Source of the DNA: a virus
Lineage: Duplodnaviria; Caudoviricetes
Virus record (IMG/VR): IMGVR_UViG_3300037246_001990
Coordinates: 1-63,032 of that record
Strand: one strand, 5' to 3'
Length of the DNA stretch: 63,032 bases
Positions 10,205 through 19,160 of the stretch are shown here, in pieces (the stretch's first letter is position 1; each line of letters opens with the position of its first letter). The notes beneath the pieces are model-generated. The model worked only from the letters and a program-made list of their open reading frames with translations, had not been told where the DNA came from and searched no databases. A program made the translations under genes and the position numbers.

Positions 10205-10451
10205 AATTGTAATTAAAAAGGGGTCTATGAGTCTTGAAATTGATAGAAGTGAATTAGTTCAAGTAGAAGAGACTCCTGATGGAATGGCATTTGATTTTAA
10301 AAATGGATTTCAACTTTTATATAATGATCAATATATGGAGGTATCAAGAAAAAATGTTATCAAGAATACTTCAAATAGTTATGAAGGAAAGAAGTTAGTA
10401 TTTGATTTTGATAACAAAAGACATCCTGTAATGGTTCATGGAGATAGTTAA
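10197..10451 (+). CDS. Hypothetical protein
   Basis: ORF with GAGGG RBS, overlapping the previous gene. Confidence 0.65.
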   Translation: MAKIVIKKGSMSLEIDRSELVQVEETPDGMAFDFKNGFQLLYNDQYMEVSRKNVIKNTSNSYEGKKLVFDFDNKRHPVMVHGDS

Positions 10452-10472
10452 AATTCATTTTAAAAAAAATAT

Positions 10473-10493
10473 CTATATATATTAATTACTGAA
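10473..10493 (+). promoter_or_regulatory. Candidate phage promoter motif CTATATATATTAATTACTGAA
   Basis: 18/21 match to 372-392; sits immediately before the ncRNA array. Confidence 0.45.
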
Positions 10494-10539
10494 TAATAAA
10501 GAATTACCTTAATTTGTCTAACAACAAAGGAGGTAAATC

Positions 10540-10617
10540 ATGACCGCACACCGGAGTGGATGGTGTACCTATCCCTTCACTCCATTTTTTCGGATATATA
10601 TTTTTGAGAAGACTTAA
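10540..10617 (+). CDS. Putative 25-aa leader peptide MTAHRSGWCTYPFTPFFRIYIFEKT
   Basis: Strong SD AAGGAGGT (10527-10534) 5 nt before ATG; contains hairpin GGAGTGGA/TTCACTCC followed by A and T6. Confidence 0.4.
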   Translation: MTAHRSGWCTYPFTPFFRIYIFEKT

Positions 10618-10738
10618 TATAATTTCAGACCGCTGAATGGCTTCAGCAATGGTATTCGGAACCATAGATTGTGGGTTCAATTCCCATCTTTGCCTACCAA
10701 GCATGGCAATGCTATAAAGTTATATTTACTACTTCTCA
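10605..10738 (+). ncRNA. Scaffold RNA unit 1 with tRNA-like cargo (anticodon-like arm TCG, T-arm)
   Basis: TGAGAAG/CTTCTCA outer stem, GACT, AATATAAT/GTTATATT inner stem, TTCAGA; cargo ATGGT-ATTCGGA-ACCAT and GTGGG-TTCAATT-CCCAT. Confidence 0.7.
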
Positions 10739-10746
10739 TTTTTTAT

Positions 10747-10810
10747 GGGGTGTACCATGATTCGATTTACGCATAGACGTCTTACGTTTCGTGGATATTG
10801 CACCCCACCA
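10747..10810 (+). ncRNA. NCCA-ended acceptor-stem-like hairpin
   Basis: GGGGTGTA/TGCACCCC stem followed by ACCA then TTT. Confidence 0.6.
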
Positions 10811-10817
10811 TTTATAT

Positions 10818-10885
10818 GCGAGGGGGACTGAGTATAGTTTCAGAAACTTCGGTCTAAGAACTATATTCAAATCCCCCGAGCGCCA
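10818..10885 (+). ncRNA. Scaffold RNA unit 2 (short cargo, ends CCA)
   Basis: GGGGGA/TCCCCC, GACT, GAGTATAGTT/AACTATATTC, TTCAGA; ends CGCCA. Confidence 0.7.
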
Positions 10886-10892
10886 ATTTTAT

Positions 10893-10930
10893 GCCGGATG
10901 ATACACATGTTTATCCATGTGCCGGCTCCA
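10893..10930 (+). ncRNA. NCCA-ended mini-hairpin
   Basis: GCCGG/CCGGC plus TCCA; inner CACATG/CATGTG stem; followed by TTTT. Confidence 0.55.
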
Positions 10931-10937
10931 TTTTCAT

Positions 10938-11012
10938 GCCTGGGAGACTGTTGATGATTTCTGAATATCTAGTGAGATAAAAAAAATTATTAATAATTTC
11001 TCCCCGGCACCA
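10938..11012 (+). ncRNA. Scaffold RNA unit 3 (ends ACCA)
   Basis: GCC..GGGAGA/TCTCCC..GGC, GACT, GTTGATGATT/AATTATTAAT, TTCTGA; ends ACCA TTT. Confidence 0.7.
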
Positions 11013-11017
11013 TTTGT

Positions 11018-11074
11018 GGGGCGTGCTAGCTCTGACTATTTTGCGGACGTTATCTAGCTCTAAGCGCCCCACCA
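11018..11074 (+). ncRNA. NCCA-ended acceptor-stem-like hairpin
   Basis: GGGGCGT/GCGCCCC 7-bp stem plus ACCA; inner GCTAG/CTAGC. Confidence 0.6.
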
Positions 11075-11077
11075 TTT

Positions 11078-11199
11078 AACTGGAAGACTTTATATGGTTT
11101 CAGATTGTCGCTAATAACGACAAAGCCAGGCGTCAAAGCCGATACCGAGAATCGGACGGTATATTCCGATTGCCAAAACTATATATTTAACTTCCAGTT
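11078..11199 (+). ncRNA. Scaffold RNA unit 4 (multi-hairpin cargo)
   Basis: AACTGGAAG/CTTCCAGTT, GACT, TATATGGTT/AACTATATA, TTCAGA; cargo hairpins TTGTCG/CGACAA and AATCGGA/TCCGATT. Confidence 0.7.
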
Positions 11200-11209
11200 T
11201 ACATTTTTC

Positions 11210-11304
11210 AACATGAAAGACTTTATATAATTTCAGAAAGTCACTTGAAATGACTCGGCTATTGGAGCCTCTTCCAACATAATTATATATACTACTTTCA
11301 TGTT
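11210..11304 (+). ncRNA. Scaffold RNA unit 5
   Basis: AACATGAAAG/CTTTCATGTT, GACT, TATATAATT/AATTATATA, TTCAGA; cargo AGTCA/TGACT. Confidence 0.7.
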
Positions 11305-11339
11305 TTATTTTCTTTTACAATGCCCCTCGTCATTGTATC

Positions 11340-11477
11340 TTTACTAGAAAGACTTTAATGTGATTTCTGACGCGCATTAGCTCAGTTGGTAGAGCTATGT
11401 CCTATAGAGACATTAGTCTTGGGTTCAATTCCCAAATACGCAAACAACAAGATTACATTCTTTAACTTTCTAGTAAA
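11340..11477 (+). ncRNA. Scaffold RNA unit 6 enclosing a full tRNA cloverleaf
   Basis: TTTACTAGAAAG/CTTTCTAGTAAA, GACT, AATGTGATT/GATTACATT, TTCTGA; cargo 11371-11443. Confidence 0.75.
11371..11443 (+). tRNA. tRNA-like domain with anticodon ATA (Tyr-reading), probably not a functional tRNA
   Basis: TAGCTCAGTTGGTAGAGC D-arm, ATGTC-CTATAGA-GACAT anticodon arm, TTGGG-TTCAATT-CCCAA T-arm; acceptor stem has C1-A72 and C5-A68 mismatches, ACA instead of CCA. Confidence 0.55.
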
Positions 11478-11490
11478 ACTTTTTTATCGT

Positions 11491-11555
11491 GCAGGGACTT
11501 GTTTGTGACTTCAGATTGGTTTCGGCTCTTCTACAGTCACAACTAGTTCCCCTGC
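11491..11555 (+). ncRNA. Scaffold RNA unit 7
   Basis: GCAGGG/CCCTGC, GACT, TTGTGACT/AGTCACAA, TTCAGA; followed by C and T-run. Confidence 0.7.
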
Positions 11556-11559
11556 CTTT

Positions 11560-11665
11560 TTTTATAGTGTAAACGGACATAGGCGCCGTTGGATAACAGG
11601 AATAAATGGCACCAGACAAAACCTGTTGAATCTGTCCTTTTGGTGCGGTGTAGGGCGCTATAAAA
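11560..11665 (+). ncRNA. Structured RNA with possible H-type pseudoknot
   Basis: TTTATAGTGT/GCGCTATAAA closing stem, GGACA/TGTCC, crossing pairs GGCGCCGTT/AATGGCACC and AACAGG/CCTGTT. Confidence 0.45.
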
Positions 11666-11675
11666 TAACATCAAC

Positions 11676-11746
11676 AATGGACTGTGTGTAGTTTCAGATA
11701 TGCGACATCCAAAAGGTGAAAGACAATCACTACACACAATCCCATT
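11676..11746 (+). ncRNA. Scaffold RNA unit 8
   Basis: AATGG/CCATT, GACT, GTGTGTAGT/ACTACACAC, TTCAGA; followed by T-run. Confidence 0.7.
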
Positions 11747-11828
11747 TTTTATGAATATTTAACTTCAACCAGGAAAATTGTATATTAAGACTTTCCGTTG
11801 AAAATTTGTGAAAGGAGGTAGTTGAACA

Positions 11829-13403
11829 ATGACCATGATGAAGCTAGACTCAGGAATTCTTCAATATGTCCCAAAGGGTGCTTATTATGAAGGCGCAGAT
11901 CAACAATTTGAGATGGTAAAAGATGTTTGGGATAGGTTGCTCAATTACGACAGGGCGTTATTCGCTTTGTTATCACTTTTAAATGGAAGTCATTTTTCCA
12001 AAGGGATGATCAGTCATCTCTTACTATCTAACCCTACAGCTGGAAAAGGACTGGTGACTAAAGACGGTCCAGACAATCCATTGGTTCCGGTAGGACTTCC
12101 TGATGATTTTGAAAAGAATGTTATCCTTTACAATCTAGAGAAGGTTGCAGAGGATTCCATGCCAAGAGCTTTGAAGAATCTGTTGATTTTAGTAGGCAGC
12201 GAAGGAAGAAATGCGAAAAGAGTCAACAATTCACGAACCAGATCAATCATTCTCGATTTTATTTTCAATCGGGATAATCGTCAGTTGGATGCTCTTGCTG
12301 TCAACTACAAAAACAAATTGGCAAAACTTGTCAAACATGCATTAGGGAAGCAAGATCTCTATAATATATTAAATAATAATAATGATAAAAAGCTTTATAC
12401 AAAGCTTATAGGACGATATAATCGTAATGCTTTACCAATTGTCTGTTTTTTGTTTGGAACTTCACAGGCGCCGGCTCAGGTTCATCAAGCCCAAGCATAC
12501 TTTCCAATGGTTGAAAATTATTATGCATTGAAAGAAGCAGCATCCACTGGAAATATCCCAGGTTTCAAAAAGCATATGAAGAAGCTCCCTTGGAGAACTG
12601 TCATGGGGTTTAGAAACTCTTATAAACTCACAATCGAAAAGTCAGAAATCCTCGGCGCATCAAAAATGTCTGACAGAGATCTGATTCAAACCCAATCAGC
12701 TCAGAAACGAGCTGGAGCAAAAACTGTTCGAAAAGTCAACTACAAGAAGCAAGATCTGTATGATCTGTGGAAGTTGTATTACCACAAGCTTCTTAATAAT
12801 GATGGAGCTGAAATGGATAAGATTGTCGAAGGAATTGATTATGTAGATGCTAATACCGAAAAGATGGATTTCGGAGATGTAGCTGCAGTCCTTGATATGA
12901 GCCATTCAATGCGGGGAAGTGATGAACGTCCGCTCCATCCAATGTTAACTTCAATGTGTCTACTATCAGTAATTTCAGATGTTAAATCTATCCATATGGT
13001 AAGTGGAAAACAGGTACAGATAGAAGGCACAGAATATTCAGCTCTTGTAGCAAATGGATCTTCACCATTATGGAAAGGTCTTGTTGAAGCAGTATTAACC
13101 GGAGCAAAAACTATAATCGTCATTTCAGATGGTTATGAAAATACAGTGAAAGGAATGTTTAATCATGTATATAAGCATTTCAAAGATGCTGGAAAAGATT
13201 TTGAGATCATTCATATCAACCCAGTTTTTTCTGCCGATGCAAAATCCGGAACTACAAGAACACTGATTGAGGGCGACAATCCATTACCAGTAGCAAACTA
13301 TAAACATCTGGAGACAGAATTTATATTTCGTAAAATGCTTGAACATACGGAGATGGTCAAACAACTCCTTGTGGGCAGGTACAAAAAATTAATCGGGAGG
13401 TGA
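11829..13403 (+). CDS. Helical N-terminal region plus C-terminal vWA domain protein, Ro60/TROVE-like architecture
   Basis: 524 aa; vWA MIDAS AAVLDMSHSM and IIVISDGYEN; Lys/Arg-rich N-terminal ~340 aa; strong RBS GAAAGGAGGT; follows the RNA array. Confidence 0.6.
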   Translation: MTMMKLDSGILQYVPKGAYYEGADQQFEMVKDVWDRLLNYDRALFALLSLLNGSHFSKGMISHLLLSNPTAGKGLVTKDGPDNPLVPVGLPDDFEKNVILYNLEKVAEDSMPRALKNLLILVGSEGRNAKRVNNSRTRSIILDFIFNRDNRQLDALAVNYKNKLAKLVKHALGKQDLYNILNNNNDKKLYTKLIGRYNRNALPIVCFLFGTSQAPAQVHQAQAYFPMVENYYALKEAASTGNIPGFKKHMKKLPWRTVMGFRNSYKLTIEKSEILGASKMSDRDLIQTQSAQKRAGAKTVRKVNYKKQDLYDLWKLYYHKLLNNDGAEMDKIVEGIDYVDANTEKMDFGDVAAVLDMSHSMRGSDERPLHPMLTSMCLLSVISDVKSIHMVSGKQVQIEGTEYSALVANGSSPLWKGLVEAVLTGAKTIIVISDGYENTVKGMFNHVYKHFKDAGKDFEIIHINPVFSADAKSGTTRTLIEGDNPLPVANYKHLETEFIFRKMLEHTEMVKQLLVGRYKKLIGR

Positions 13404-14380
13404 TGTATATGTCATTACTTGACAAACTAAATTTCATTAATAAACTGGAGTTAGGAGATGTACAGTCAGATGAAGAAATGACTATCATTCCTTTGATTGG
13501 AGAGTTAAGGCATCATGTAGCACCTCCAGAATCACTACAGTTTACACGAACCACAACATATGGTTCAATGGAATTCAGAAACACAAATCAAGAAGAGCCA
13601 GCAATTATTCCTTCCCATATGATGGTAAGGGGTAAGTCGGCTCAAGATCATGCAATGAGTGGATCCGGTATCGTATTAGCAGCTTCTGATCGTTTATTTC
13701 AAAATGCATGTTGTGTTGAACAAACTCAAGGCGGTTTACTTCATGGGCAAAATGTTGAAACCGATGTATTGCCTCTTGAGCTACGAAAAGCTTTACTAGA
13801 TCCGGCCCGAAGAACAGATCGTGAATATGGAAAACTTTGGGGTAGCATCAAAACATGGTTGAGAAAGTTCAACAAATTTTCAACTGTGAACCGAGCTCAC
13901 ATCAGAGACTTCTTCGATGATAAAGATTACAAAGAGTCATTGGAAGAGTTCGCAGCGAGTTTCGAACCGGTAGATGGGCAGATTGGAGCTTTAATCATGT
14001 TCAATGGAATTCCAGTTGGTTTGGAAATTATGCCAAGTGCTGAACATTGGCAAGCATACTGGAAATGGTTGATTCGTGGATGTTATGGATCTCAACTGAT
14101 CAATATGAAAGAAAGTGGAGAGCTACCAAGATCAACAATGATTTTGCCCAAGCTGAGTAATGAAACGCCTGATAATAAGGTCGAAGAAATCATAACTGAG
14201 TTTATTAATAACATAAAACTTAGTATGGTTCCCATGCTTGAAGGCATCGAGATTACAAATCAAACTCAAGTGGACTCCATTGGTAATTTGAAAACTCAAT
14301 TATTGAGAACCGACAGTGGAGGTGGTGGTGATCTTATCACTCAGGATAATGAACCTGTATACCTCTCTTTAATTTTGTAG
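13400..14380 (+). CDS. ARPP-family (DUF6569/ARPP-1 or ARPP-2-like) protein
   Basis: LELGDVQ...TIIPL, AQDHAM, ACCVEQTQGG, FEPVDGQIGALIMFNG..VGLEI pattern; overlaps the vWA gene. Confidence 0.55.
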   Translation: MMYMSLLDKLNFINKLELGDVQSDEEMTIIPLIGELRHHVAPPESLQFTRTTTYGSMEFRNTNQEEPAIIPSHMMVRGKSAQDHAMSGSGIVLAASDRLFQNACCVEQTQGGLLHGQNVETDVLPLELRKALLDPARRTDREYGKLWGSIKTWLRKFNKFSTVNRAHIRDFFDDKDYKESLEEFAASFEPVDGQIGALIMFNGIPVGLEIMPSAEHWQAYWKWLIRGCYGSQLINMKESGELPRSTMILPKLSNETPDNKVEEIITEFINNIKLSMVPMLEGIEITNQTQVDSIGNLKTQLLRTDSGGGGDLITQDNEPVYLSLIL

Positions 14381-14394
14381 AAAGTGGGGAGTAT

Positions 14395-14541
14395 ATGAGC
14401 GTTGAGCAGAAACAACTGAAGAATTTAAGAAATAGGGCTTTCGATTATATTAAAAAATCAACACCTGAAACATTAGTAAAATTAGCATTGTTTCTAAAAA
14501 TCAAAGTCCCCAATGAACTTATTGAAAAGTATAAGAAGTAA
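14395..14541 (+). CDS. Small basic hypothetical protein (48 aa)
   Basis: ATG after GGGGAG RBS; MSVEQKQLKNLRNRAFDYIKK...; below the ORF-track size cut-off. Confidence 0.55.
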   Translation: MSVEQKQLKNLRNRAFDYIKKSTPETLVKLALFLKIKVPNELIEKYKK

Positions 14542-14591
14542 TCTAAAAGCCTGTCTTCATGGTCATCGTGACGTTGAAGACTTACACACCC

Positions 14592-14665
14592 CTACTGTCT
14601 GGCAGTATCGGTATCGCTTTTATTCTCTAAAAAGGGAAAAAGCGTCCGATTCTGTCAGACAGTAG
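14592..14665 (+). ncRNA. Long imperfect hairpin (structured RNA or regulatory element)
   Basis: CTACTGTCTGGCAG/CTGTCAGACAGTAG, ATCGG/CCGAT, CGCTTTT/AAAAGCG; followed by palindrome AAAGTCATGACTTT and T-rich tract. Confidence 0.5.
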
Positions 14666-14708
14666 AAAGTCATGACTTTAAAACTTTTTTCCTTTTTTCA
14701 GTTTTTAA

Positions 14709-15299
14709 GTGAGGAGTTACAAAATGAGGAGCACATCAACAGAACGATTCTTAGAAAAGTTGGGGGCTGAAGTTTATCCAATTACTATTGTCAAATTTCT
14801 TCTAAACAGGCGTAGAATTTTAAATTATTTTGAGATAGCTCAACAAGATAATTTTAAAATTCAGGTTAAATATGAAGTAGATCATTCAACCTGTCCTATT
14901 TGTGAACAGAAAAAACCAGAAGGAATTCTTTGCCGTCAACATACATCAATTGACAGAGTTCTTAAAGCCAACACCGTAATGTTCGATATTGATACGAACA
15001 CATATTTCTTCAAGAATGAAATTTTTAGGATGGTGGGGAATAGACTAGTCATCATATATTGTCCTCACCCCAAACTTATCACTGGAGATATTACGGATAA
15101 GAAGGCAAGAAAGATTAATCCGATTACAATTGAAGATAAAAATCTTGAAGGTCTTCCTCAATATGAAGGCATAAAAGAATTTATGTCGTTATCATTAATG
15201 GATCAGAATATGACATGCTGGTTCAATTATGAATTTACATTATCAACCATACCAGATACTAGAGATAAATCCGATTGGTGTCTTATACCAAATAGGTAA
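14709..15299 (+). CDS. Hypothetical protein with CxxC...CxxH zinc-finger-like motif
   Basis: CPICEQKKPEGILCRQH; likely start at ATG 14724. Confidence 0.65.
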   Translation: MRSYKMRSTSTERFLEKLGAEVYPITIVKFLLNRRRILNYFEIAQQDNFKIQVKYEVDHSTCPICEQKKPEGILCRQHTSIDRVLKANTVMFDIDTNTYFFKNEIFRMVGNRLVIIYCPHPKLITGDITDKKARKINPITIEDKNLEGLPQYEGIKEFMSLSLMDQNMTCWFNYEFTLSTIPDTRDKSDWCLIPNR

Positions 15300-15304
15300 T
15301 CAAA

Positions 15305-15598
15305 ATGAAATTAAAAAAAGTTATTACGGCAATGAAAGATCCAGATCCATGTGAAAAATGTTTAGTTCGACCAATATGCAGAATCTTATGTGAAAATAAG
15401 AGAAATCGAAATGGTCGAGCTAATTCATACTGGGTTGGTTTCTCGCCTCTTATTTTTGTTATAAGTATAAGTGTTTATGTATTTTCATTTGCAATTGCAA
15501 ATGTGTTTTACCACTTTGGTTTGTTAACTAAAAAACAGGTCAACGTGTTTGATCCATTTTTAGATGAAAGTCAAATGGATAGATTAAATTATTATTAA
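15305..15598 (+). CDS. Small Cys-cluster membrane protein (PCxxCLxxxxC family)
   Basis: PCEKCLVRPICRILC followed by a hydrophobic segment. Confidence 0.6.
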   Translation: MKLKKVITAMKDPDPCEKCLVRPICRILCENKRNRNGRANSYWVGFSPLIFVISISVYVFSFAIANVFYHFGLLTKKQVNVFDPFLDESQMDRLNYY

Positions 15599-15612
15599 CG
15601 GAGGAATAAACC

Positions 15613-16554
15613 ATGCCCGAATTTGAAGAGTATGCTGATTTAGAATCAACTGGACACGAAAGTCGAGAGCCTATTAAACCTGAGGATGAGTTTTATCATA
15701 GTGTTTATATTTCAGGTAAAACTCGAAAAAATCACATCGGAACCACAGAAGAAGTTGGTAAGTTTCAAGTCAGAGGTGTAGAATATAATCTCGATCAAGT
15801 TAATTTGATTATTACTCACACTAAAGATTTGCTTGTCAAGGAAAACCAAAGTGGTGGACGTCAGAATATTGAATGTACTTCATTCAAACCTGGTCTGCCT
15901 CCCTGGTATGGAACTTCAAGACTTCAGAGTGGTGATCCAAGACAGTGTCCTCAAACATCAGCAGAAAGAGCAGTGAATGATTACTGTAGTCCGTGTCGTT
16001 CCCAAATTGTTGTTGCAGGTATCTACTGCAGTCCTGATGGAAATCCCATTCTATCAGGAGAAAAGAAACCAATATTCCTATTTATTAGAGGAAAGGGAAT
16101 GAAATACTCAAATGTATCAAATTACTTGGGCGACCTTTTTAAGTTGGATTTAAATCCCATCTTTGAACCAGTTACAGATCAATCTCAATTGTTTGAGAAA
16201 AAAGTTGTAAACAATAAAAGGTTCGTTACGAATATTACCAAAGGAACCGCTCCTTCCCAATATGGCGATAAAGATGTATTCGTCCTACAAACAGGAACGG
16301 AACTACCAAAAGAAGTTGTCTTAAAAATCTTAGACGCTTCAAAGAAAACTCTTGACAAATTCAATGATAAATTTGATTGGTCTAAGAGAGTATCAACATC
16401 TGGTTATGGTGATGATAAGAAACCTGAAAACGATGAAAAGGTCTTATCACTTGATGGAGACAATACACCAGAAGAACCAACACAGGAAAGTGGCCAAACT
16501 GAAGATAAAGCAAAACAAACCTTCAGCTTTGATGATGTTAATTTTGATAATTAA
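15613..16554 (+). CDS. Probable single-stranded DNA-binding protein
   Basis: 313 aa with acidic tail ending FSFDDVNFDN, typical of phage SSBs; GGAGG RBS; replication context. Confidence 0.45.
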   Translation: MPEFEEYADLESTGHESREPIKPEDEFYHSVYISGKTRKNHIGTTEEVGKFQVRGVEYNLDQVNLIITHTKDLLVKENQSGGRQNIECTSFKPGLPPWYGTSRLQSGDPRQCPQTSAERAVNDYCSPCRSQIVVAGIYCSPDGNPILSGEKKPIFLFIRGKGMKYSNVSNYLGDLFKLDLNPIFEPVTDQSQLFEKKVVNNKRFVTNITKGTAPSQYGDKDVFVLQTGTELPKEVVLKILDASKKTLDKFNDKFDWSKRVSTSGYGDDKKPENDEKVLSLDGDNTPEEPTQESGQTEDKAKQTFSFDDVNFDN

Positions 16555-16579
16555 GTTACGTTGAAAAGGAGCTATTTAA

Positions 16580-17890
16580 ATGCCGGATGACACTCAAACG
16601 AAGGAAACCGAACTCAAATACCACGAGATATTAAACATCTCGGTTTTATCAATCAACAAGATAAAGGAGCTTATCAAACAGGATATTGTCCGTACATTCA
16701 AAACATGGGCAAGTGGTAAAGATGTAAAGAAACAATGTTGGCATATAATAGGTCCGGCCGGCGTTGGGAAAACTGAAATCTGTGGACAGATAGCAAAGGA
16801 ACTTACAACTGAAGTTCCTCTTGCATTATCGAAGACAGAAATTAAAGCTCCTCATCTTGTGCCTGGTCTTACCGACGGACAAGAGTTCGTCTTTGATATG
16901 ATGATGATCAAAGCTCCAGTTCTTTCTAGAGATGATTTTATCATCCCCTTTCCAGTCATTGATGGCGGAGAAAACAGTTTTAAAATGCTGTATTCCGACT
17001 TCGTCCCAAAAGGTGAAAACACATATGGTCTCTTTGTTATTGATGAATTCTCAAGAGGAGATCATTCATTACAACAACTGTTATGGCAGGTTCAAAATGA
17101 ATACGCCATTCATAGACACCCATTCCCAAAGGGATGGTTTGTTATATCAATCGATAACCCGGATGATTCTGAATATCAAATGGACAACCTGGAAGATGCA
17201 GCAGGACTGAGACGACAGCTTCATATATACACTGAAGTAAGTCCCGTTGATTTTCTGGATTATGCAATCGCCAATGAATATCATCCATTTATTATTGAGT
17301 TCATTCAGACTCACCCTGAAAGGATCTATGACTTCCAATGTCAAAGTCGGGGAATGGTTTATGCGAACCCTGCAAGTTGGGAGAGAATGTCAGATCATTT
17401 ATGGAAAATGGAATCGGATGGCGGAATTGACTTTAGCACAATTGAGCATGTCGGTGCAGGTCTTTTGAATGTACATATGACTCAGTTATTCATCGATTTC
17501 GCCAGGGACAAAAAGGATATCAATCCAAGAGACGTGTTTTATCGTTTCAGTTCAGTGAAGAATGATATCCTCAAACTCAAGAAAGCAGGAGATAATGGAA
17601 AGCTCGGTGAGCTTATGGTCGGGTATTGTACCTTCATGACTACAACCAGACCTGACTACAAAGCGGAACACCTCAACAACATCGAGCAGTTCCTTCTTAT
17701 GATGCCCATCGATACGGCAGCGTTGTTTATATCACAAATCGATGGTTTTGATAGAAACTCGGCAGCGTTCAAATACATGACGGATATTCATGTTGCCTTA
17801 CTGAAAAAGTCGAAGAAGTATAAGAGGGAATTTTATGATCCTATCGTTGATTGTGGCGATGGAAAACTTAATGTAACAAAGGCATCCTAA
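16580..17890 (+). CDS. MoxR-type AAA+ ATPase
   Basis: Walker A GPAGVGKT, Walker B VIDEFSRG, SIDNP, DAAGLRR, NPASWE. Confidence 0.85.
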   Translation: MPDDTQTKETELKYHEILNISVLSINKIKELIKQDIVRTFKTWASGKDVKKQCWHIIGPAGVGKTEICGQIAKELTTEVPLALSKTEIKAPHLVPGLTDGQEFVFDMMMIKAPVLSRDDFIIPFPVIDGGENSFKMLYSDFVPKGENTYGLFVIDEFSRGDHSLQQLLWQVQNEYAIHRHPFPKGWFVISIDNPDDSEYQMDNLEDAAGLRRQLHIYTEVSPVDFLDYAIANEYHPFIIEFIQTHPERIYDFQCQSRGMVYANPASWERMSDHLWKMESDGGIDFSTIEHVGAGLLNVHMTQLFIDFARDKKDINPRDVFYRFSSVKNDILKLKKAGDNGKLGELMVGYCTFMTTTRPDYKAEHLNNIEQFLLMMPIDTAALFISQIDGFDRNSAAFKYMTDIHVALLKKSKKYKREFYDPIVDCGDGKLNVTKAS

Positions 17891-17894
17891 TAAT

Positions 17895-19160
17895 ATGGAT
17901 ACCTCAGAAAGACTTAAGAATCTGATTGCTCAACATGTTCTCAAGTACAATTATTGGGGATATTTGTTTTCCAGAATACGAAGGGTATCGGATAAAAGAA
18001 CACCTTCTATTATGGGAGTAGGTCCGGAGAAGGATGGTACTATATCACTATATTACCATCCTGATCTAGTAGATAAAACTGCTGATGATCAAATCCTTAT
18101 AGTATTGGAACATGAGGGTATGCATCTTTTGAATCATCATATACCACGTGGAATGAAAGTCTACTACAATGAAACGGATATTCAACGAAGAGCAATCAAA
18201 ATGAATATTATGAACATAGCATCAGATTGTGCAGTTAATCAGCAGGCAAATATCAAAAATGATATTATCATAGATGGAAAACCTTGGAAGCCTCAGCTTC
18301 CAGAACGTCATGGAATGCCACCTGGAAAAGTTACTGAATGGTATTATCTTGAATTGCTTAAGAAAACAAAAGTAACAGAGATGCCATGTTATGCAGCAGG
18401 TGGTTTGGATAATCATGAAAAGTGGAGTAAAGCAGCAGGTGACTCTTCTGATCCAAGTGCTTTAGCAAGAAAGGTACAAAATAATGTACAGCGAATTGTT
18501 AGAGAGTCTGCAAAGACATTCAACAAAGATCGAGGAACCCTACCCTCTCATATTGCAAGTCTAATTGAAGATGCATTAAAACCGCCTAAAGCTCCATATT
18601 ATCAAATAATTAGGCGGTTGGTTAGAGGATCTAGATTAAGCAAGTTTAGAAGATCTCATACTAAAATCAATCGAAAGAGAACTTATGTATTTATGATTGG
18701 TGAGAAAGAACTTTCGATTCCAGAAATATCTCCGTTTCCAGGTCGGACTCGGGATTTTACATTTGATATTGCTGTATTGATTGATACATCTGGAAGTATG
18801 GGGAGAGATGAGCTTGCGGAAGCTTTGTCTGGTATTAAGAACATAATCGAAAATGACAAACATTGCAAAACGACAGTTTTAGAATGTGATGCTATAGTCC
18901 ATAAAGAGTATGTTGTTAAGAAGGTCAGGGATATTGATCCCAAACTAAAAGGTGGTGGAGGAACTACTATGGGTCCTGGTTTGATAAGAGCAAGAGAGTT
19001 AGGAGTCGATGTATGTCTTGGTTTTACAGATGGATACACTGAGAATATTAATGGAATACCTCGAAAACTTCTACCCAAGAAAATAATTTGGGTTGTATCA
19101 AAGGGAGGTAGTGTAGAAAGTCTGAATCGAACCGGATACGTAGTTAAGTTAGACACATGA
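17895..19160 (+). CDS. Metallopeptidase-like plus vWA domain protein (DUF2201-like), partner of the AAA+ ATPase
   Basis: HEGMHLL HExxH, NIASDCAVNQ, LIDTSGSM MIDAS, GGGGTT, FTDGY. Confidence 0.85.
   Translation: MDTSERLKNLIAQHVLKYNYWGYLFSRIRRVSDKRTPSIMGVGPEKDGTISLYYHPDLVDKTADDQILIVLEHEGMHLLNHHIPRGMKVYYNETDIQRRAIKMNIMNIASDCAVNQQANIKNDIIIDGKPWKPQLPERHGMPPGKVTEWYYLELLKKTKVTEMPCYAAGGLDNHEKWSKAAGDSSDPSALARKVQNNVQRIVRESAKTFNKDRGTLPSHIASLIEDALKPPKAPYYQIIRRLVRGSRLSKFRRSHTKINRKRTYVFMIGEKELSIPEISPFPGRTRDFTFDIAVLIDTSGSMGRDELAEALSGIKNIIENDKHCKTTVLECDAIVHKEYVVKKVRDIDPKLKGGGGTTMGPGLIRARELGVDVCLGFTDGYTENINGIPRKLLPKKIIWVVSKGGSVESLNRTGYVVKLDT

Follow-up and report, generated by a model that had tools for sequence, protein, structure and literature searches.

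What is a run of small hairpins with tRNA-like ends doing in the genome of a large phage? The question is raised by the stretch of DNA analyzed here (the window, by which the whole stretch is meant), a 63-kb fragment of an IMG/VR virus record (IMGVR_UViG_3300037246_001990) with a completeness estimate of about 20% and an AT-rich composition (G+C about 30-38%), which encodes multisubunit RNA polymerase subunits and is therefore taken to be a jumbo-phage fragment. A first-pass annotation had singled out five consecutive hairpins at 10747-11074 as mimics of tRNA ends that would allow host nucleases to cut a polycistron into units, or that would act as decoys. The hairpins are found to be part of an array of structured RNAs in front of a gene for a Ro60-like protein, and they are therefore best read as Y-RNA-type partners or companions of that protein with tRNA-like ends. 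A Ro60/Y-RNA context for the locus is, in our estimation, very likely.

Five G-start, CCA-ended hairpins in a noncoding RNA array

The array occupies about 1.3 kb of the + strand (approximately 10470-11750), contains at least 13 structured RNAs as dense hairpins, and lies directly 5′ of the gene for the 524-aa Ro60-like protein, with the RNA polymerase beta gene 0.9 kb upstream; the open reading frame list of the window contains no long frame within 10452-11828. Related jumbo-phage loci, 114 of which were collected from viral and metagenome contigs with the RNA polymerase beta gene as anchor, are designated here by L-numbers, L155 being the closest relative and L212 and L140 being located on one contig.

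In the minimum free energy folds of all five hairpins (Table 1), the first G pairs with the base preceding the discriminator, leaving the terminal NCCA unpaired. When fold energies were scored against 200 dinucleotide shuffles per hairpin, the z-scores for hairpins 1-5 were -5.10, -5.95, -3.15, -6.79, and -2.26, and the number of shuffles folding at least as well was 0, 0, 0, 0, and 5, respectively. The folds and shuffle scores thus bear out the description of five consecutive G-start, CCA-ended hairpins with GC-rich terminal stems. T-rich spacers of 5-8 nt part one unit from the next. The spacers around the five are, in order, TTTTTTAT, TTTATAT, ATTTTAT, TTTTCAT, TTTGT, and TTTAA, which places a T at position -1 of every one of the five units. 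That each CCA is followed directly by T, as had been claimed, is accurate for four of the five, the exception being the end at 10885, where an A precedes TTTT.

Bacterial RNase P favors substrates with U at -1 and G at +1 that have about seven stem pairs and end in RCCA. As far as sequence features go, all five units carry what is expected of an RNase P minihelix-type substrate, with a stem of about 7 bp or more, G+1, U-1, an unpaired N73, and CCA, and the U at -1 and the U-rich spacers would fit substrates of bacterial tRNA end-processing. The idea of tRNA-end mimicry for host processing therefore stands for the ends themselves, which resemble an acceptor stem (G+1, a stem of 7-9 bp, N73, and CCA), while the processing that it envisaged is a prediction, one with a published precedent in Mycobacterium smegmatis YrlA.

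The handle RNA units

Hairpins 2 and 4 are two of eight units in the array that share a common scaffold, referred to here as the handle, and in both of them the P1 helix extends into the acceptor-like end. The handle runs in the order P1, an invariant 5′ ACU, P2, UUUCAGA, an insert whose length varies from 16 to about 90 nt, P2′, a loop of 2-5 nt, and P1′, with the conserved 5′-strand motif RAGACUU and with UUUCAGA following one helical turn later. A loose handle pattern occurs seven times in the window, always within the array region, versus 1.57 expected, and arrays with the handle motif are present at the same position in many of the related loci.

An alignment of 36 short-insert units contains 13 base pairs, all 13 of which show compensatory changes, and its paired cells amount to 94.3%, compared with 69.1% in shuffles and 35-48% when the partner strand is slid, though these pairing statistics are inflated because the script that picked the units required pairing. 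Searches with a covariance model are consequently a less biased test. The model built from the 36 units (R1), run on both strands of the window with filters off, returned eight units, all on the + strand between 10607 and 11747 and five of them absent from the training rows, and the next best match in the 63 kb had an E-value of 0.71.

Two of the inserts are related to tRNA. The insert of unit A contains three arms of a tRNA (D, anticodon, and T), and the loop that caps its acceptor-like stem reads UACCA; the insert is matched by the Rfam tRNA model (35.2 bits over 10632-10687) and has homologs in L155 and L140 in which the arms are kept despite changed bases. Unit F encloses a tRNA at 11371-11443 that has the anticodon AUA and no encoded CCA (ARAGORN; Rfam tRNA, 55.6 bits), and because its acceptor stem also includes a C-A mismatch, this tRNA may not serve in normal decoding. 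A wobble A is frequent among the tRNA and tRNA-like inserts of handles, as in AUA in the window and AAU in L121 (10364-10439); insert anticodons read by eye in L140, L147, L162, L204, and L233 include AUC, AUG, ACU, and ACG, and one insert of L204 has the anticodon UUA, complementary to the stop codon UAA. Four relatives (L233, 2960-3010; L204; L162; and L140) share a variant handle, ACUUUUUGACUUUUCAGG, whose insert is AUUGUACUGCUAAUACAUAACCC and which the window lacks.

Inspection of the consensus of the 36 units by eye led us to drop the kink-turn, C/D box, hammerhead, and hairpin ribozyme as identities for the handle, none of which it fits, and the same consensus fits neither a bulge-helix-bulge splice site nor an anticodon arm with an intron. 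A degenerate handle pattern searched against IMG/VR returned 113 stretches that were single and mostly chance matches, and these were set aside.

The handle units accompany the downstream gene

Seventy distinct related loci continue for 3.5 kb or more beyond the RNA polymerase gene; an ortholog of the 524-aa protein gene is present in 25 of them and absent from 45. Across the 996 kb of these loci, both strands included, R1 gave 77 matches at E <= 0.001, and all 77 fall in ortholog-bearing loci, on the strand of the gene and upstream of it; every one of the 25 ortholog-bearing loci was matched, and the 45 ortholog-less loci yielded no match at this threshold. In the window, all eight handle units lie on the + strand 80-1220 nt upstream of the 524-aa gene, with a gap of 80 nt between the last unit and the gene. 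The layout is that of Y RNAs, with the RNAs on the same strand near a Ro60-type gene and their 5′ and 3′ ends paired through P1 and P2, both of which covary. Two of the ortholog-less loci, L122 (10170-10275) and L124 (10180-10270), have a shorter spacer and an unrelated long hairpin after the same AT-rich motif that is found at the head of the array.

The downstream gene encodes a predicted Ro60-like protein

An AlphaFold2 model of the 524-aa protein, computed from the 25 orthologs, has a predicted local distance difference test score of 81.2 and a predicted template modeling (TM) score of 0.75, and in it a long stretch of helical repeats precedes an alpha/beta domain. The best-ranked matches to this model in Foldseek are all Ro60/Rsr/TROVE structures (probability 1.00, E 1e-4 to 1e-3). 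VIA-align extends the resemblance over the whole protein, as the Ro60 matches (phiLo, Xenopus, human, and Deinococcus) cover 380-420 residues at Z 14.9-11.2, including 14.9 and 13.8 for the Ro60 of Thermus phage phiLo, 12.2 for Xenopus Ro60, and 11.3 for Deinococcus Rsr, and no other full-length fold is present among the matches listed. Residues 349-498 match von Willebrand factor A (vWA) domains at Z of about 11, and D356, S358, and S360, which make up the DxSxS metal site, are conserved in all or nearly all of the 25 orthologs. The predicted model thus has the Ro60/TROVE architecture of a HEAT-like ring followed by a vWA domain with a MIDAS metal site. A cluster in the ESM Atlas named TROVE domain-containing protein aligns at TM 0.74, which is a lead rather than independent proof.

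Sequence comparison alone does not lead to this assignment. The protein has no match in Pfam, PHROGs, or NCBIfam, and none that is meaningful among PDB chains, whether a single sequence or a profile was used; no close relatives were found when they were sought directly in IMG/VR, and a profile search of large protein collections returned only unannotated relatives, with no sequence bridge to TROVE. The sole tblastn match among GenBank phages is in LR756500.1, an unannotated 462-kb uncultured phage (104033-105319, 23.5% identity, 88% coverage). On the strength of the predicted fold, the 524-aa protein is very probably a highly divergent Ro60-like protein.

NCCA hairpins in related arrays

A strict script applied to 27 related arrays detected flush NCCA ends on 17 distinct hairpins, compared with 0-4 for control tails made of unrelated three-base sequences of like composition; the tails CAC (9) and ACC (12) are register shifts of the same NCCA ends, and the reverse strand of the arrays gave seven. 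Among the 17, T occupies position -1 in 14 and G position +1 in 16, and N73 is A in 10, U in six, and G in one.

Hairpins 1, 3, and 5 fall in two handle-less families that are conserved in relatives. Family 1 is built on the stem GGGG(U/C)GU together with a second stem, CCA..UGG, and most of its members end in ACCA; relatives of hairpin 1 occur in L155, L162, L204, L147, L212, L233, and L131, and hairpin 5 is a paralog of hairpin 1, both of its ends aligning with the family. A pattern search for this family returned seven true members, six with ACCA, and an eighth row, from L175, that is a false match outside any array. Family 3 comprises five nearly identical members (the window, L155, L158, L212, and L147), all of which end in UCCA and are preceded by TTTAT, and an exact search of IMG/VR with the core of hairpin 3 found just two contigs, both already part of the set compared here. 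In addition, homologs of hairpin 2 that carry NCCA are present in L155, L162, L164, L140, and L233.

Other features of the array and its surroundings

The features of the array and the genes that follow it are collected in Table 1.

Table 1. Positions of the structured RNAs, the candidate promoter motif, and the adjacent downstream genes in the window (R1, covariance model of the handle).
Feature	Position	Strand	Description
AT-rich motif TCTATATATATTAAT, candidate phage promoter	10472-10486	+	Head of array; putative function
First hairpin, GGAGUG..CACUCC then AUUUUUU	10552-10586	+	Fold; kept in L155; CCA partly within stem
Handle unit A, tRNA-like insert	10607-10736	+	R1 29.4 bits, E 0.00013; fold
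Hairpin 1, handle-less, 64 nt, tail ACCA	10747-10810	+	8-bp basal stem GGGGUGUA/..CACCCC
Hairpin 2 (handle unit B), 68 nt, tail GCCA	10818-10885	+	Basal stem GCGAGGGGG/CCCCCGAGC, tiny UUCG insert; R1 54.1 bits, training row
Hairpin 3, handle-less, 38 nt, tail UCCA	10893-10930	+	Fold
Hairpin 4 (handle unit C), 75 nt, tail ACCA	10938-11012	+	Basal stem GCCUGGGAG/CUCCCCGGC; R1 32.3 bits, E 2.6e-05, not training row
Hairpin 5, handle-less, 57 nt, tail ACCA	11018-11074	+	7-bp stem GGGGCGU/GCGCCCC
Handle unit D, insert of three small hairpins	11080-11198	+	R1 38.3 bits, E 9.4e-07, not training row; fold
Handle unit E, insert of two hairpins	11213-11303	+	R1 45 bits, E 2.2e-08, not training row; fold
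Handle unit F, enclosing complete cloverleaf tRNA	11345-11474	+	R1 21.9 bits, E 0.0086
Handle unit G	11490-11554	+	R1 48.2 bits, training row; fold
Long irregular hairpin without handle, 120 nt	11555-11674	+	Fold, -31.6 kcal/mol
Handle unit H, last of array	11674-11750	+	R1 46.7 bits, training row; homolog in L155
524-aa Ro60-like protein	11829-13403	+	Predicted helical repeat ring and C-terminal vWA, DxSxS metal site
ARPP-1 domain protein, next gene, co-directional	13400-14380	+	Pfam PF20208, E 1.5e-22

The core of the AT-rich motif at the head of the array, TATATATATTAAT, also heads the arrays of L233, L204, L162, L147, L140, L131, and L155, and a variant, TATATATAAAT, is present in L121; a similar motif is found in L122 and L124, which are Ro-negative. 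The motif has three matches in the window at up to two mismatches, which is not above chance. Array DNA searched against GenBank phages gave no match, and Rfam, searched at E up to 10, gave only weak snoRNA-type chance matches beyond the two tRNA-model matches in units F and A.

Several smaller elements accompany these features. A short handle-less hairpin, ACAAUGCCCCUCGUCAUUGU, at 11316-11337 is identical in L155. A 25-codon open frame, MTAHRSGWCTYPFTPFFRIYIFEKT, at 10540-10617 is preceded by the Shine-Dalgarno-like AAGGAGGT, extends across the first hairpin and into the start of unit A, and is kept in L155 with synonymous and conservative changes; its product may be a very small protein or a leader peptide. 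A conserved element, AAAAAATTGGATAT..CCGT..GAAAGGAG, lies in the interval (11750-11828) that separates the last RNA unit from the start codon of the Ro60-like gene. This element is also found in L121 at 10600-10653 and just before the Ro-like start in L233, L204, and L147, and it may serve the protein gene as a promoter or leader of its own.

Downstream, the genes at 13400-19160 run in the same direction and encode the ARPP-1 protein, three proteins without a family, and then two further products, one with a weak AAA-type ATPase match (16580-17890) and the other a DUF2201 metallopeptidase plus vWA-like protein (17895-19160). These genes may form one functional block with the Ro60-like gene. 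In L121, the frame next after the Ro60-like ortholog is 322 aa long, similar to the ARPP-1 gene in length, which is the only property compared.

Proposed maturation and role of the array

We favor, with moderate confidence, a reading of the whole package as a Ro60/Y-RNA-like module in which units with tRNA-like ends are matured by host tRNA end-processing. The eight handle units are likely the RNA partners of the downstream Ro60-like protein, a role in which binding is deduced from their association with the gene, and they likely act as Y RNAs, with a constant protein-binding stem and varied effector modules, two of which are tRNA-like. We infer that the array would be transcribed rightward as a single precursor, tentatively from the AT-rich motif at 10472, and that host RNase P would cut 5′ of each G. 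The short UUUUAU-type trailer of the upstream unit would then be shortened by 3′ exonucleases as far as CCA, or the CCA-adding enzyme would repair the CCA, and the tRNA-like end might shield each small RNA from further 3′ decay. The handle units would be protected in addition by the bound Ro60-like protein, which the handle might tether to whatever each insert recruits. Maturation by RNase P seems to us slightly more probable than the reverse, and for the handle-less hairpins any role beyond punctuation and stability would be conjectural.

A number of observations weigh against this interpretation. Concerning the protein, the TM-scores of the Foldseek matches to Ro60 structures are modest (0.33-0.47), the Pfam TROVE family (PF05731) is found neither in the window protein nor in its 25 orthologs at E up to 1, and 10 remote homologs match no Pfam family, TROVE included, at E up to 0.001. 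Concerning the RNAs, to which the selection bias in the pairing statistics also applies, the published Ro-binding motifs GNCGAA, CGAA, and GGUCCGA are all absent from 10452-11828, the array has no GNCGAAN0-1G (CGAA) element of the kind found near the 5′ end of YrlA/Yrl RNAs, and the Rfam search at E up to 10 found no Y RNA family and no known self-cleaving ribozyme in the array. The strict alternation of scaffold and non-scaffold hairpins claimed in the first-pass annotation is correct for the window (2 and 4 are scaffold units, and 1, 3, and 5 are not) but fails in L155, where the order is scaffold, hairpin, hairpin, hairpin, scaffold. The sequencing runs listed for the phage, seven in five studies, are DNA runs, and none is on record as RNA.

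The NCCA end itself is not universal. A strict NCCA hairpin occurs in only nine of the 27 related arrays, CCA ranks just third of 64 tails in a looser test (21 versus a mean of 6.8), and the family 1 members of L212 and of L233, the latter missed by the pattern, end in AUCA. In the window, no NCCA end is found on six of the eight handle units, so that another nuclease must also act. Taken together, the sparse NCCA, the AUCA variants, and the six handle units without the end indicate that the tRNA-like end is a lineage-specific addition and not the core of the system.

Other explanations of the CCA-ended hairpins

It could instead be argued that the handle-less NCCA hairpins are active mimics of acceptor stems, for which a function as processing punctuation would be secondary, and that they serve as decoys or competitive substrates for synthetases, the CCA-adding enzyme, or acceptor-end toxins, or as tails that plug the Ro ring. 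Family 3 is almost invariant in its five members, loop and bulge included, which is beyond the need of a mere processing signal, and family 1 retains the second stem CCA..UGG beside its acceptor-like stem. The nearby ARPP-1 gene points the same way, as the Pfam description ties ARPP-1 to ARG and Rhodanese-Phosphatase superfamily domains, and the ARPP-1 group was reportedly placed among RNA repair systems by Burroughs and Aravind in 2016. Nevertheless, family 1 tolerates AUCA, the families are present in just part of the Ro-positive arrays, and the stems show none of the known identity elements (G3:U70, for example), and we regard the mimic explanation as unlikely. An extension of it, which we hold to be equally doubtful, is that the locus belongs to a clade of uncultured sediment jumbo phages with a multi-RNA Ro60 hub, in which a divergent ring is loaded with up to eight handle RNAs for different host targets and the NCCA minihelices are trans-acting mimics of acceptor ends. 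If that were so, the minihelices might thread the Ro ring or soak up host enzymes or defence toxins that act on tRNA 3′ ends, and the locus would be an organizer of counter-defence and RNA repair rather than of plain RNA quality control.

Two further explanations can be considered on the basis of the hairpin ends. The U-rich runs that follow GC-rich stems, and the recurrent TTTTAT just before the first G, would suit intrinsic terminators or attenuators, or units that are separately transcribed from the G after a TTTTAT-type initiator. In each hairpin, however, the four unpaired bases of NCCA separate the stem from the T run, so that none of the five looks like an intrinsic terminator, and termination needs no specific CCA; a terminator scan of 10300-11900 found one site, inside hairpin 5, and none at the five ends. 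Sigma-70-like matches number eight, versus 6.3 in shuffles, in a scan that does not cover phage polymerase promoters. Both variants are thus quite improbable. Still less credible is the idea that the hairpins are reduced or armless tRNAs that work in translation, despite their acceptor-like ends and the company of one cloverleaf tRNA and one tRNA-like insert in the array. None of the five was called by ARAGORN in four modes (standard, relaxed, and mitochondrial settings), the Rfam tRNA model does not match them at E up to 10, and their folds have no D or T arm.

Significance of the locus

Ro60 and Y RNAs have been conserved across organisms as distant as bacteria and humans, the basis on which Y RNAs choose their partners is poorly understood, and phage versions have only recently begun to be studied. 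Phage Ro60 with Y-like RNAs and the processing of a Y RNA by RNase P and CCA addition are already in print. What is new here is the consensus of the handle, an array of this size and modularity, a tRNA nested in a handle, two families of NCCA minihelices, and a Ro60-like protein family that is invisible to sequence profiles. A search of the literature for such arrays in jumbo phages found nothing matching, the supplementary phage YrlA lists of PMC4201824 and the 2016 survey of RNA repair being outside its scope. The locus provides a natural series of eight RNAs that combine one constant handle with different modules, and the new consensus, together with the protein family that profiles miss, offers a way to ask what the Ro ring recognizes and what the modules recruit. 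The CCA-ended hairpins in turn constitute a testable case of minimal viral mimicry of tRNA ends for the excision and stabilization of noncoding RNAs by host enzymes. With the covariance model and the alignment of the protein, annotators could find the module in other metagenomic phages.

Relationship to known Ro60/Y RNA systems

The array shares features with three kinds of known system. The tRNA clusters of phage T4 include the small stable species 1 and 2 RNAs, which are not tRNAs, have acceptor-like ends, and are matured by host tRNA enzymes. The hairpins described here are likewise non-tRNA small RNAs inside a phage tRNA-type cluster, whereas we know of no Ro60 partner or shared handle for the T4 RNAs. 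The hairpins also resemble tRNA punctuation and RNase P minihelices (compare PMC2190699 and PMC12710915), in which an acceptor-like helix with RCCA directs RNase P and precursors are cut at tRNA-like elements. As punctuation, the window elements would differ from those systems in being minimal hairpins conserved as families rather than tRNAs, and their cleavage is putative.

The closest likeness is to the bacterial and phage YrlA/Yrl RNAs with Ro60 (Rsr). In more than 250 bacteria and 22 phages, Y-like RNAs are encoded on the strand of Ro60 and no more than 4 kb away from it, and each species has at least one with a tRNA-like domain (Chen et al. 2014, PMC4201824). In Mycobacterium smegmatis, RNase P cleaves YrlA both in vitro and in vivo, and the RNA receives CCA, an end that the authors proposed to protect against exonucleases, and in Deinococcus radiodurans Yrn2, tRNA-Asp, and Yrn1 derive from a single precursor (PMC4201824). 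In phages, a 2025 report describes a Ro60 of Thermus phage phiLo that has two Y-like RNAs, both encoded upstream of its gene, as binding partners and that complexes with host PNPase (PMC12135203), and a review mentions a ROT/TROVE protein in a few jumbo phages (PMC7824862).

As in those systems (PMC4201824 and PMC12135203), the window places small RNAs beside a Ro60-type gene on the same strand. Its RNAs have a stem formed by the 5′ and 3′ ends, a conserved motif in the 5′ strand, and variable modules, some of them tRNA-like (a tRNA-like domain is present in units A and F). Several RNAs also occur per locus in YrlA/Yrl systems, where transcription together with a tRNA is known and, in one documented case, RNase P cleavage is accompanied by CCA addition. 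The window differs from YrlA/Yrl loci in its handle consensus, ACU..UUUCAGA, in having eight handle units compared with two to five RNAs per locus in the cases compared, and in a 524-aa protein that is too divergent from known Ro60 proteins for Pfam TROVE. Finally, the tRNA-like modules are joined to the rest of the RNA in a different way: the insert of unit A retains an anticodon arm and is attached to the handle at a point between its acceptor and D arms, whereas the order in YrlA is T-AS-D, and in unit F the handle encloses a whole tRNA.

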